From: a virus
Virus record (IMG/VR): IMGVR_UViG_3300045116_000451
Coordinates: 1 to 64,000 of that record
DNA: 64,000 nt
Reading direction: 5' to 3' (one strand)
Below, piece by piece: positions 52,721 to 64,000 of this stretch. Position numbers and translations under genes: made by a program. Positions within the stretch are counted from its first letter, which is position 1; the number at the start of each line of letters is the position of its first letter. Under the pieces are notes generated by a model that saw nothing but the letters and a program-made list of their open reading frames with translations, was not told where the DNA came from and searched no databases.

Positions 52721-55384
52721 TCAGCCGAAGACGCCGTTCGAGCCTCCGACGTCGAAGATCCCCGTGTCCGGCGCGATCTCCTGCCCACCGACGACGCTCA
52801 TCTGCGTGGTCGGCACGTAGTCGGAGCGCGTTCCGGGCCCGCCGCCCGTCAGCATGCCGGGCCCGGCGCCCAGGCCCGCTGCGGCCTCCATCACACCGAA
52901 TTCGGCGTCCAGGTTCCCGTCCGGGCGCACGCCGTCGTTGATGTAGCCGAACCCATCCGCTGAGCCCGAGAAGCTCGGCAGCACCTCGTAGTCGCCGTAG
53001 CCCTCGACCTGCAGGCCCGAGGCGACGTACTCGCCGAAGTCACTGACGGGCGCGAGCGAGCCGTCCGAAACGTACTCGCCGGTGCCGGTCACGTACTCGC
53101 CGAAGCCGGCGTTTGCCTGGTAGAACTGGCCCATGCCGGCGGCAGCCTGCACGAAGCGCGGGTCACCGAAGCCGGCGTTCGCCTGGTAGACGGGCTGCCC
53201 GAAGCCGCCCATCACGTAGCGCGAGCGCTGGCCCTGGCCCGGGATGCCCGAGAACCCGGGGATGGTGTAGCCCACGGCGTTCAGAATGCCCTGGATGACG
53301 CCCGTCGCCATGGCGACGAAGCTGCCGACGCTCACGGCCTGTGCGTAGTGGCTCTTGCTCGGGTCGGTGAGGAACCACTTGCCCGAGGCGTACATGCCGA
53401 TGCCACCGGCGACGACCTTGGAGGCGGGGCCGACGAACTTCGCGACGCCCGGCCCGAGGTAGCCGCCGAGGATGCTGAACAGGCCCGAGAGCAGGTTGAT
53501 GCCGATGAACCCGCCGATGCCGGTGAGGCCGGCCTTGATGGCATCGCCCCAGCTCGGGTACGCGAGGTTCTCCATGTAGAAGCCCGGGTTCTTGCGGAAC
53601 TTCTTGCCCATGCGCTTGTACATCTTCGACGCCTTCTTGACGCCGTAGCGCTTGACCAGGGCCTTCCACGTGCGCTTGCCGAAGCGCTTCTTCGCTTTCT
53701 TGCCGTACTTGCGCTTCTTGCTCGTGGACCGGCGCTTCTTGCTCTTGCCGCGCTTCTTTCCCTTGCTGCGCTTCTTGCCGCCGATCGCCCAGTAGTCGGG
53801 CTTGCGGAACGCGCTCTTGGTGCGCGCCTTCTTGAGGTACTTGCGGAAGCGCTTGGAGCCCATCATGGCCCGCACCCACGCGTCGAAGTCCTCGTACTCG
53901 GGGAACTGGCGCTGGGCGTGCCCCTCGGCCATGGCTTCCATCGCGAGGGCGAGCTGCTGGGGCGTCACGCCCATGTCGCGCGCGGCCTGCACGGCGGCGT
54001 ACGTGAACTTCGGGGGCTTGGGCATCTTCGGGGGCTTGATGCGCCTGCCGACCCAGGGAGGAAGGAAGCCGGGCCCCCAGTCGAGGCGCTGAGCCCAGGC
54101 ATACGGATCGAGGCGCTGGCCGCCGATGCCGGGCCGGAACGGGTAGCCGGTGCCTGCGCGCGTCTGCATGCGCGTGATGACGAGCAGGCGGCTTCGCGCA
54201 AGCGCCTTCTGCGACGCCGTCGCGCCCGGATGTGCGAGCACGGCCTGGAGCAGGCTTTCGGCGTAGCGGAAGTTGCGAGACCGAAGAGCCGTCAGGGCGC
54301 GCGCCAGCATGCCGGCCGGATCGCCGTGCCCGGCTGCAGCGCCGTACTGGTTGGGAGCGAACGGGCTGTTCTTGATGGTGACGTTGAGCGCGCCCCGTCC
54401 GCCCACGGCGTGCACACGACGAGCGCGCAGCGCGCCCTTGCGCGCGTAGCCCTTGCGCCCACGCTTGGCCTTGCGGCTGCGCTTGGCCTTGCGGCCGTAG
54501 CCCTTGCGGCCGCGCTTTCCCTTGCGCGCGTAGCCTTTGCGCCCGAAGCCGCGCTTGGCGTACGCGCCCTTGCGGCCCTTCTTGCGTCGGCGCTTGCCCT
54601 TGCCGCGACGCTTGCCCATGTTCTCCTCGAACTCGAAGCTCGAAGAGCTGGACGAGCTGCTGTCGTCGTTCGCTTCGAACTCGTCCGCGTTGCGGCGGAA
54701 GGCTCGCACCTTGCCCCTGTACGGACGCAGGGTGAAGCTTTTTGAGATCAAGCCGGGAAGCCCATGGCGTCCCTTGCCCTTGCGGCCTCGCTTGCCCTTG
54801 CCGCGCTTGCGGCCCTTCTTGCGATTCTCTTCCATGACGATCATTGGATCCTCCGTCCAGGGTGGGCCGGCGCCCGGGCCGGCGGGGTTGTTGAGCGCGG
54901 TCTGGACGCCGTACTTCTTGGCGGCGGCGCGGATCCGGCGCTTGATCTTCGAGCGCACTGCCGGCGTGTAGCTCGGGCAGTGCTTGCCGCAGTAGCTGGC
55001 GGCGGCGCGCACGAACGATTGGCTCTGGGCCTTGGTTTTTCCGTGGATCGGGTACGCGTAGCATTCCGGCAGGGCGTAGTGCTTTCTTTCTGTGGCACCG
55101 CGGCGGCGGTGTTTTGCTGGAGGTGACGAATGGCAGGTGACCCCGCCGACCTTCTTGGCGTTCGTGAGGAAGCGCCCCTTGTCGTCTCTGGGCTGCGCCC
55201 GCGGACGCCGCCGATTCCCCGGGTTCGAGATGCCCATGAGGGTGGTGACGCCGGCAGGGTTCGGGTTCAGGCGCAAGGGATGGCCCTTGGGTACGCCGTA
55301 CCCCTTGGCGATCTTGCTGCTCACCTCGAAGACCTCGCCGGTCGCCACGCGCATGCCTCTGCCGCATTCGCGGGAAGCCGCCAC
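52721..55384 (-). CDS. Protamine-like basic membrane core (poly)protein
   Basis: K/R/G repeats, DUF6582-like YALP..YPIH..RIRAAAKKYGV segment, multi-TM region, acidic GFG(E/Q)Y repeats. Confidence 0.7.
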   Translation of the reverse strand: MAASRECGRGMRVATGEVFEVSSKIAKGYGVPKGHPLRLNPNPAGVTTLMGISNPGNRRRPRAQPRDDKGRFLTNAKKVGGVTCHSSPPAKHRRRGATERKHYALPECYAYPIHGKTKAQSQSFVRAAASYCGKHCPSYTPAVRSKIKRRIRAAAKKYGVQTALNNPAGPGAGPPWTEDPMIVMEENRKKGRKRGKGKRGRKGKGRHGLPGLISKSFTLRPYRGKVRAFRRNADEFEANDDSSSSSSSSFEFEENMGKRRGKGKRRRKKGRKGAYAKRGFGRKGYARKGKRGRKGYGRKAKRSRKAKRGRKGYARKGALRARRVHAVGGRGALNVTIKNSPFAPNQYGAAAGHGDPAGMLARALTALRSRNFRYAESLLQAVLAHPGATASQKALARSRLLVITRMQTRAGTGYPFRPGIGGQRLDPYAWAQRLDWGPGFLPPWVGRRIKPPKMPKPPKFTYAAVQAARDMGVTPQQLALAMEAMAEGHAQRQFPEYEDFDAWVRAMMGSKRFRKYLKKARTKSAFRKPDYWAIGGKKRSKGKKRGKSKKRRSTSKKRKYGKKAKKRFGKRTWKALVKRYGVKKASKMYKRMGKKFRKNPGFYMENLAYPSWGDAIKAGLTGIGGFIGINLLSGLFSILGGYLGPGVAKFVGPASKVVAGGIGMYASGKWFLTDPSKSHYAQAVSVGSFVAMATGVIQGILNAVGYTIPGFSGIPGQGQRSRYVMGGFGQPVYQANAGFGDPRFVQAAAGMGQFYQANAGFGEYVTGTGEYVSDGSLAPVSDFGEYVASGLQVEGYGDYEVLPSFSGSADGFGYINDGVRPDGNLDAEFGVMEAAAGLGAGPGMLTGGGPGTRSDYVPTTQMSVVGGQEIAPDTGIFDVGGSNGVFG

Positions 55385-55417
55385 CCTGGCGAAACGGATC
55401 TCCGCTACCTGCGTGCC

Positions 55418-55446
55418 GTTCTACCGGCGCGGACACGATCTGTCAA
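55418..55446 (-). promoter_or_regulatory. Promoter for the core/capsid operon
   Basis: TTGACA(55446-55441)-17-TAGAAC. Confidence 0.4.
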
Positions 55447-55457
55447 GCGCGGCGCCG

Positions 55458-62691: not shown

Positions 62692-62702
62692 GTCCGTGCC
62701 TT

Positions 62703-63245
62703 TCACCACGCGGTCGCGTGTTCGCGCTTTCGCTTGATGCCAACGATGAGAGCGCCGACGGCAGCCAGACCGACCGCGCCCGCGCCAAGGTAGAGCGGGT
62801 CCTTGTACCAGGGGACCTTGCCCGCGGGCCCGACGCCTGGCCCCGTTCGGCCAGCGAGCTTGCCGTAGTAGCAACCTGCCCAGGCCGTGTAGTCGGCTTG
62901 CATCCCGGCGCAAGCAGCCGACGCCTGAGCCATGAGCGCCGAGTACTCGGCCGTCTTCGAGGGGTTCGCGGCGATGTCCGCCGCCATCCTCGTGTTGAAC
63001 GCGACGCAGTCGGCGTGAGCCTGCGGGTTCGAGCTGACGGGAGCACAAGCGGCCTCGACGCCCGAGCCGATGCCGGGAAGAACGCCGAGGCCCTCGAGCG
63101 CCGGCATCCTGACGATCGGCTGCACGACGAAGTTTCCCTGCCGGCTGTCTTCGCGGAAAACCGGGCGCGTGTAGATCGGGCCGCGAATGTACGGCCATCG
63201 AAGCCACTCGAAGTACGTCGGGTTGAGGATGCGCCGGTGGCTCAT
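62703..63245 (-). CDS. Membrane protein (ILNP, LEGLG, C-terminal TM)
   Basis: ATGA coupling; TM followed by KRKR. Confidence 0.7.
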   Translation of the reverse strand: MSHRRILNPTYFEWLRWPYIRGPIYTRPVFREDSRQGNFVVQPIVRMPALEGLGVLPGIGSGVEAACAPVSSNPQAHADCVAFNTRMAADIAANPSKTAEYSALMAQASAACAGMQADYTAWAGCYYGKLAGRTGPGVGPAGKVPWYKDPLYLGAGAVGLAAVGALIVGIKRKREHATAW

Positions 63246-63625
63246 CGTCGCTTCCCGTGGCGCCGGCGGCGGCGCTTTCGGTTGGGGCTCGCGCTGCCAG
63301 TTCCGCGGTACGCCGCGTAGCCGGCGGAGACGATGGGGCCGCCGAACAGGCCTCCCCAGAACCAGCCGTGCTTGCCGCCGTGCGCCTTCTTGCCGATGTA
63401 CCAGCCCATGGCCGCGCGAAGAGCGCCACCGACGAGGAGCACGCCGGCCAGAATACCGAGGGCCACCATCTGCCCTCGCTTCGAGACTTGCTGCGGCTCG
63501 ACAGCACCAAGGCCCGAGAGCCGGGCTTTGAGAGCCTCGCCGAAACGCATCGGCCGCAGGAAGAGCGCGGGCCTGCCGAACGAGAACGGCCCAACCGGGG
63601 GCCATGCCTGCCCGAGAGCGTTCAT
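63242..63625 (-). CDS. 2-TM protein (LSGLG, ASPN-basic tail)
   Basis: Two hydrophobic helices; NRKRRRRR. Confidence 0.7.
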   Translation of the reverse strand: MNALGQAWPPVGPFSFGRPALFLRPMRFGEALKARLSGLGAVEPQQVSKRGQMVALGILAGVLLVGGALRAAMGWYIGKKAHGGKHGWFWGGLFGGPIVSAGYAAYRGTGSASPNRKRRRRRHGKRR

Positions 63626-64000
63626 CGCGCACCTCGCTTGCCCTTGCGGGTCTTTTTGCGTTGCTTGGTGCCCCTCTCGACGAACACGTCATGCCCCACC
63701 ACGCGCTTGCCGTGACGTTCGGTGTGGATTCGGATTTTGATCGTTCGCTGATCACAAGCGGGCGCGAGAACGCCGATGGCACGATGCACCTGCGCTCTGC
63801 TCGGCGCTTGTGCAGGCGGGGTGAGGCGCATGCTGAGATTCGGGCATTTCGCTCCGGTTCGCTTGATGTTCGCGAGCGCGCTCTGTCCGGCGCCTGGCTT
63901 GGCGAAGAGCGCTACCCCGAATAGGCCCGTCGTGCCGAAGACCGTGCCGGCCAAGCTTCCGGCAATGGGGTGGCCCAGGCGCTTGCCCACGTAGTAGCTG
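63622..64000 (-). CDS. Membrane protein with basic C-terminus (5' partial)
   Basis: Frame open to the window edge; hydrophobic segment, then ALAN and K/R tail. Confidence 0.55.
   Translation of the reverse strand, partial: SYYVGKRLGHPIAGSLAGTVFGTTGLFGVALFAKPGAGQSALANIKRTGAKCPNLSMRLTPPAQAPSRAQVHRAIGVLAPACDQRTIKIRIHTERHGKRVVGHDVFVERGTKQRKKTRKGKRGAR

Follow-up and report, generated by a model that had tools for sequence, protein, structure and literature searches.

An asparagine motif at the start of arginine-rich tails and modules in particle proteins of a large bacterial virus: a candidate maturation cleavage site

Adenovirus protease cuts at sites of the form (M/I/L)-X-G-X followed by G in the precursors pVII, pX/Mu, pVI, pIIIa and pTP; its substrates are DNA-bound and its products include protamine-like peptides. 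The head proteases gp21 of T4 (L/I-x-E) and gp175 of phiKZ (S/A/G-x-E) similarly act at a residue-specific motif carried by many unrelated internal head proteins, from which targeting peptides are removed. Here we describe a motif consisting of a hydrophobic or small residue three positions before an asparagine (Phi/small-x-x-Asn), which stands at the start of arginine-rich tails and modules in proteins encoded by the virion (structural) block (~46.6–65.7 kb, minus strand) of the viral contig IMGVR_UViG_3300045116_000451. The window analysed is bases 1–64,000 of this single 95,653-bp contig. With adenovirus protease sites and the Glu-specific sites of T4 and phiKZ as the closest working analogies, we tentatively favour reading the motif as a maturation cleavage site with Asn at P1 and a hydrophobic, aromatic or small residue at P4.

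Like the adenovirus sites, the motif is short, has a hydrophobic P4 and occurs both in a basic core protein and in other particle proteins; like the T4 and phiKZ sites, it is a single residue-specific motif found in many unrelated particle proteins of a large phage. In adenovirus, Gly stands at the scissile bond, the protease belongs to clan CE, the host is eukaryotic and cleavage is proven, whereas here the residue is Asn, the candidate enzyme has a transglutaminase fold and the motif is known from sequence. The T4 and phiKZ enzymes are serine proteases with Glu at P1 that serve tailed phages with HK97-type heads, whereas here Terminase_6N, the sole terminase family tested, is absent.

Five single-pass membrane proteins and one 45-amino-acid (aa) open reading frame (ORF) of the window end in small/hydrophobic-x-x-Asn followed by an Arg/Lys tail. 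On the minus strand, the C-terminus of a 517-aa protein (gene 58248–59801) reads YSAN then RKRKRARRRRGRKARRNCSN (58251–58322; Asn codon 58311–58313), with the Asn 60 residues past the helix and the tail RKRKRARRRR. A 231-aa protein (gene 59698–60393) ends in AVSN then RPRSRGGRRSGRGRKRHLSYGPR (59701–59781; Asn codon 59770–59772; tail RPRSR), and a small membrane protein at 60390–60713, whose ORF is listed to 60821 and whose true start is probably downstream, ends in LATN then RRRVERPRGRYGRDR (60393–60449; Asn codon 60438–60440; tail RRR). On the same strand are ASPN then RKRRRRRHGKRR (63245–63292; Asn codon 63281–63283; RKRRRRR), the tail of a 127-aa membrane protein (63242–63625), and AVAN then RRKRRKRKRAGTRRWSWMKPRRRGRRKYR (61669–61767; Asn codon 61756–61758; RRKRRKRKR), the tail of a 92-aa ORF (61666–61944) of uncertain coding status, its GC content at third codon positions (GC3) being indistinguishable from that of its antisense ORF (0.75 vs 0.76). 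The 45-aa helix-plus-tail ORF (2592–2729) carries FAAN then DRKKKTRKKRR on the plus strand (2682–2726), far from the virion block.

A sequence-only reading of the window had proposed that Asn holds a fixed place at the start of basic tails that follow transmembrane helices. All eight strings it quoted are present where it had located them, and the proposal stands for the five membrane proteins and the 45-aa ORF. It does not extend to two strings without a basic tail: ATPN then CGEALRNCNR (60704–60745, minus strand; Asn codon 60734–60736), which ends the 282-aa protein and is a degenerate instance, judging by an Asn that is kept and a basic tail that is missing, and ALAN (63868–63870), which is internal and has only IKR after it. 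Nor is the distance from the helix fixed: it varies from 12 to 60 residues, so that the Asn is not juxtamembrane. The gene at 63622–64341, in the same block, encodes a distal basic tail without Asn. Distal oligo-Arg tails almost always start with N or N-P and juxtamembrane K/R clusters never do; proteins with basic residues only directly abutting the helix (RRKKP, KRKREH...) have no such Asn. The tripartite C-terminus of motif, helix and Arg cluster resembles PEP-CTERM, MYXO-CTERM and GlyGly-CTERM signals, from which the earlier reading had rightly set it apart: in those the motif lies immediately before the helix and the Arg cluster is short, whereas here the order is reversed and the Arg run is long. 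By the positive-inside rule the basic tails should be cytoplasmic at synthesis, and their proposed placement on the DNA side would depend on how any membrane is acquired.

The 231-aa and 282-aa proteins (59698–60393 and 60701–61549) are paralogues with 75% identity over 127 aa, of which one retained its Arg tail and the other did not. Both contain repeated Cys-rich CPxGQ...GC modules, which the 517-aa protein and the protein at 61948–63594 also have.

Related loci, with 46–77% identity in the 255-aa marker protein of this virus family, encode 16 more membrane proteins that end in x-x-N then oligo-Arg. No BLAST similarity links the 12 families into which the resulting 23 tail proteins group. 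Orthologues of the 517-aa protein end in STPN then RRKRGRRR (L031:4594-5742) and LTAN then RRRRHGKGRK (L035:3562-5001), and an orthologue of the LATN protein, from a 143-aa family, ends in AIKN then PRRRTRRRRRPRR (L031:4252-4572; E-value 1e-27). The Asn is thus retained while the flanks diverge (YSAN/STPN/LTAN and LATN/AIKN), as the sequence-only reading would expect if the residue matters. Within L032, five genes in a 5-kb run of six called genes carry the ending (AAAN-RRRHRRHHR, AVAN-RRRRRHHRR, AAPN-RRRRRR, AAPN-RRRRRRHHR and AAAN-RRRR), the first of these tails being that of a homologue of the 282-aa protein (L032:1029-1682). The tail can be gained or lost as a unit; it is present in the L032 orthologue of a 346-aa protein and missing from the window copy. 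A homologue search with the 231-aa tail protein returned only itself and its paralogue.

Positional enrichment of Asn, which had been put forward as a check on the original observation, was borne out. Among ORFs called by GC3 in the virion block and 27 related loci, Asn directly precedes 67 of 546 basic-tract onsets (12.3% vs a background of 2.9%; 4.2-fold, binomial p about 1e-22). Wrong-frame ORFs of the same DNA have Asn before 31 of 2544 onsets (1.2%), matching their Asn content (Fisher p 2e-29). Across three whole genomes, Asn precedes 12 of 84 onsets inside the virion block and one of 101 outside it (p 6.5e-4). Since some of the sequences are homologous or contain internal repeats, these p-values exaggerate independence, and the count of independent families is the safer measure. 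The Asn codons at the motif are AAC or AAT and the Arg codons CGC, CGT, CGG, CGA and AGG, which indicates that selection acts on the residue, i.e. at the protein level; these codon data rule out a DNA-level motif and decay of Lys to Asn. The counts support Asn as a conserved, position-specific feature of basic-tail starts that composition does not explain.

The same residue punctuates an 887-aa basic core/membrane protein (52721–55384, minus strand), whose 24 Asn lie mostly at module borders, as in PGN-RRRPR (55214–55216), EEN-RKKGRKRG (54824–54826) and an invariant junction before the membrane bundle, KFRKN-PGF (53588–53590). Its homologues, 600–900 aa long and encoded directly upstream of the marker gene, are likewise Asn-punctuated. 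Their basic blocks begin N-RRRR and often finish RRN, as in the L021 protein, KPN-RRRHRRSRRKMSSN-RRRHRSSRRRALSPN-RRRRHSRRRMSSN-RRRHRRN, and their acidic repeats, GEYFAQN-GLGEYFAQN-G, show the same Phi-x-x-N context. In each of the 24 core proteins compared (22 aligned, two by eye), two more Asn flank a conserved GVTxLxxV peptide close to the N-terminus. The C-terminus (52721–52760, and relatives) carries a conserved ...G(I/V)FD-x-GG(N)G(V/I)(F/L)G motif, and a similar GNG(I/V)FD motif occurs in a 234-aa membrane protein family (contig 64235–64939).

A profile of the C-terminal half of the core protein retrieved 226 clusters at 50% identity with E-values below 1e-30. Of 139 distant cluster representatives, 138 retain the junction Asn that separates the basic region from the membrane bundle, and its column is the sole near-invariant one other than Gly, Pro, Tyr, Trp, Glu or Ala. 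The junction logo reads R-R-x-[Y49/F25/M14%]-[R/K]-[R/K]-N-[Q/G/A/P]-[F/G/A]: the position three before Asn is Y, F or M in 88%, and the residue after it is variable (Q 22%, G 21%, A 20%, P 12%). A logo built on all 2251 Asn of 105 full-length representatives, less than 50% identical to each other, has F/Y/M enriched 3.7–4.3-fold three residues before Asn, Pro enriched 3.2-fold directly before it and a variable residue directly after it (P 2.2-fold, G 1.7-fold). Before basic tracts in these core proteins, N is enriched 6.1-fold, T 2.0-fold, S 1.4-fold and G 0.9-fold, and Asp is outside the eight commonest residues. Naturally split core genes were also considered: short database proteins do start at the junction, but at the P4 Met (MRRN...), a start typical of a gene caller on truncated contigs, and this reading was rejected.

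A strictly kept Asn, a hydrophobic residue at −3, a tolerant next position, unrelated particle proteins, basic as well as acidic contexts and restriction to the virion block are, taken as a whole, more readily explained by an enzyme recognition site than by a generic structural preference. As in a set of maturation substrates, the short consensus recurs in 12 unrelated tail families and the core protein and is kept in relatives. That a bond is cut, which bond it is and which enzyme cuts it are what we infer. Phi/small-x-x-Asn would be recognized by a virus-encoded enzyme working on particle proteins in the course of assembly; it would trim oligo-arginine tails off single-pass membrane proteins and split the large basic core protein, yielding protamine-like peptides on the one hand and a membrane/acidic module on the other, while the adjoining Arg tracts would hold the substrates on the DNA.

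The candidate for this enzyme is a 199-aa transglutaminase-like protein with Cys, His and Asp, encoded beyond the window (contig 67242–67841) on the same strand as the virion block (minus), just upstream of membrane-protein genes, ~10 kb upstream of the core and capsid-candidate genes, and between kinase-like genes and a dual-specificity phosphatase. It is one of about twenty genes common to the contig and two or three related genomes, it is present in five of five related genomes, and its C125, H158 and D175 are invariant in 35 sequences. The top Foldseek matches of its AlphaFold2 (AF2) model (predicted local distance difference test, pLDDT, 88) are transglutaminase-fold proteases and amidases, namely 3isr, PNGase, LapG and PeiP/PeiW, and the Foldseek probability is 1.00 to 3isr, PNGase, LapG and TG2. 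Its Pfam score lies below the cut-off (14.6 vs 23 bits), many homologues carry PF01841, and a search of PDB sequences with the enzyme profile gave nothing significant. The Cys-His-Asp triad and the match of the predicted fold place the protein in the transglutaminase-like superfamily. Among GenBank phages, its sole relative is gp34 of SSIP-1 (Salisaeta icosahedral phage 1), an annotated structural protein (profile E-value 1e-18, Foldseek E-value 8e-9) that keeps the Cys, His and Asp and, unlike the 199-aa protein, has a C-terminal membrane anchor. SSIP-1 is a membrane-containing phage (PMC6356626), which together with the annotation of gp34 supports a particle-borne enzyme. Around the transglutaminase-like gene (contig 65,723–68,467 and 69,084–69,695) lie two kinase-like paralogues, the dual-specificity phosphatase (PHROG E-value 4e-5) and a zincin-like HEAGH protein.

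Several points weigh against cleavage after Asn by this enzyme. Pro is enriched about twofold directly after Asn, and X-Pro bonds are cut poorly by most endopeptidases; moreover, we know of no transglutaminase-fold protease of Asn specificity. In some lineages, D, S or Q stands in place of several alignable core Asn. The structural proteins of SSIP-1 lack the Asn-basic motif, and this phage has no homologue of the core or 255-aa protein, so the 199-aa enzyme may have another role, such as that of a virion-borne cell-wall endopeptidase at entry; by analogy with PeiW/PeiP, it could equally be an entry lysin. A second conserved candidate enzyme exists in the 203-aa HEAGH protein (contig 69084–69695). 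Strict P1 Asn, putative here, and tolerance of varied next residues are shared with legumain and other asparaginyl endopeptidases and with butelase-type ligases (clan CD, C13). The sequence-only reading had suggested searching for such a legumain- or caspase-like protease, and none was found: Peptidase_C13 and Peptidase_C14 had no match at E ≤ 0.1 in any of five genomes, four of them complete.

It is also possible, if somewhat less favoured, that the motif is never cut and that Asn is structural punctuation of oligo-Arg DNA-binding segments, marking their start and, in RRN, their end as an Asx-turn or helix cap, with the tails tethering membrane proteins to the genome or shell or signalling incorporation into the particle. 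Arg-rich nucleic-acid-binding tails with neutral punctuating residues are common, as in the SPRRR repeats of hepatitis B core and in protamines. Asn also closes basic blocks as RRN or RKN, at 2.4-fold enrichment after tract ends, as expected of a C-cap; some Asn come after stretches that are plainly helical, e.g. FSAKQRAAALRN; and about a quarter of sites read S/T-P-N-R, resembling a proline-directed kinase site, with kinase-like genes and a phosphatase nearby. However, caps normally accept S, T, D or G, and the strong preference for N, with S and G near background and Asp outside the commonest residues, does not match the S/T/D/N mixture of a helix cap. The junction Asn, moreover, is 99% invariant while the next residue varies, and the Phi-x-x-N context extends to the acidic repeats, which bind no DNA.

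Chemistry at the Asn side chain seems unlikely. Deamidation, glycosylation or deglycosylation, Asn-Lys cross-linking or sortase-like transfer could be carried out by the transglutaminase-fold protein and/or two conserved GT4 glycosyltransferases, and in favour of this PNGase (peptide N-glycanase fold) and transglutaminases are among the fold matches, the two GT4 genes (43443–45934) are conserved beside the structural genes in relatives, and an oligo-Arg tail at the extreme C-terminus suits a leaving group or docking handle. The idea is nevertheless speculation from fold alone: no enzyme with the transglutaminase fold is known to have unmodified Asn as its target, N-glycosyltransferases are not known among GT4 enzymes, and few Lys lie near the sites in relatives. 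A bolder reading, in which the x-x-Asn-oligoArg tail would be a new class of sorting signal read by the modelled transglutaminase-fold enzyme, with an acyl-enzyme formed at Asn and then either hydrolysed or resolved by transfer of the protein to an amine of the shell, of a lipid or of another core protein, strikes us as improbable. Autocatalytic cleavage by Asn cyclization, as performed by the asparagine peptide lyases of reovirus mu1 (N-P) and nodavirus (N-A) and tetravirus coat proteins, is more improbable again. Here too the putative cut site is an Asn in particle proteins, with Asn-Pro and Asn-Gly over-represented, but known lyases cut one structured site per protein within a folded active environment, whereas here there are many sites per protein, in low-complexity and probably disordered sequence with varied next residues. 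Finally, the controls exclude chance or a by-product of composition, whether from GC-rich coding, from Lys and Asn being mutational neighbours or from a signal in the DNA at gene ends. Asn (AAC) is indeed one step from Lys (AAG) and the tails lie near downstream gene starts, but the wrong-frame control and the regions outside the virion block show almost no such Asn, most tract residues are Arg with CGN codons, which are not neighbours of AAC, the codons vary, and the motif occurs in twelve unrelated families.

An Asn rule that applies to nearly every arginine-rich module of the particle proteins offers a handle on DNA condensation and maturation in this virus. If maturation cleavage after Asn is true, no earlier Asn-specific maturation system would be known from viruses of prokaryotes, and it might represent a new specificity for the transglutaminase fold, of interest to those who develop peptide ligation tools. 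Should the tails instead be a sorting signal, sortase- or butelase-like covalent assembly would take place within the particle, where the DNA-bound Arg tail would act as docking handle and leaving group; an uncut Asn would define an unrecognized Asn-capped oligo-Arg DNA-binding unit.

The contig is entered in IMG/VR as a linear virus record with a CheckV completeness estimate of 66%. Genes outside the virion block encode RecT, YqaJ, an SNF2 helicase, an integrase domain, an SLT transglycosylase, GT4 glycosyltransferases and a methyltransferase. The block itself has essentially no Pfam or PHROG matches and contains soluble conserved proteins of 255, 327 and 264 aa, the very basic 887-aa protein with its membrane bundle and, in a row, small membrane proteins of the single-pass type. 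The 255-aa protein (51834–52601, minus strand) is the family marker and capsid candidate; it has more than 400 metagenomic homologues at 50–77% identity, on contigs of up to 177 kb and with no informative name among them, and no match in GenBank phages. Its AF2 model is unusable (pLDDT 42), hhalign to PM2 P2 gave a probability of 0.2%, and an Atlas search gave only a 0.77 lead to P2_N/P2_C. Given the unusable model, the lack of similarity to PM2 P2 and the lack of a GenBank phage match, we do not present a jelly-roll capsid or an internal membrane as shown, although the particle may contain the latter. The absence of Terminase_6N and Pox_A32 is weak evidence, as it covers only two packaging-enzyme families.

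Single-protein scans of IMG/VR with the 346-aa and 255-aa proteins gave no matches, and an alignment-based scan with the 255-aa marker was needed to find relatives there, yielding 22 loci; a metagenome scan gave closer loci (marker identity 61–77%). Of the five IMG/VR records examined, four bear terminal repeats and count as complete, with lengths of 135–179 kb. The marker protein forms more than 400 clusters at 90% identity and the core protein 226 at 50% identity; with genomes of 95 to 180 kb that have terminal repeats, these appear to be an undescribed family of large bacterial viruses; the family is absent from GenBank phages, and no description of it or of the Asn-basic motif was found in the searchable literature.

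Some further features of the contig deserve mention. Inside the structural block, a 209-aa conserved protein (47036–47665), found in 15 related loci, has a C-terminal DnaJ J-domain (E-value 3e-13) and a hydrophobic Cys-rich middle. The sole recognized part of a 1603-aa ORF (37397–42208) is a phage-integrase domain (residues 533–749). An 11-kb stretch (20000–31000) has 73–74% GC vs 63–69% elsewhere and encodes a ComM/Mg-chelatase-like protein (23946–25433), of which a homologue is present in a related virus genome, together with an AAA protein and large unannotated ORFs. Beyond the window are two CRISPR-like arrays, at contig 74,909–75,593 (L023:10909-11593; 10 copies) and 81,360–81,766 (L024:1360-1766; 6–7 copies), which share, in opposite orientations, one repeat of ~37 nt with a period of 72–75. 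Abutting the second is a 641-aa ORF (contig 81,776–83,701) with a Cas12f1-like TNB domain (E-value 9e-8), and arrays and ORF together look like a virus-borne miniature type V system.

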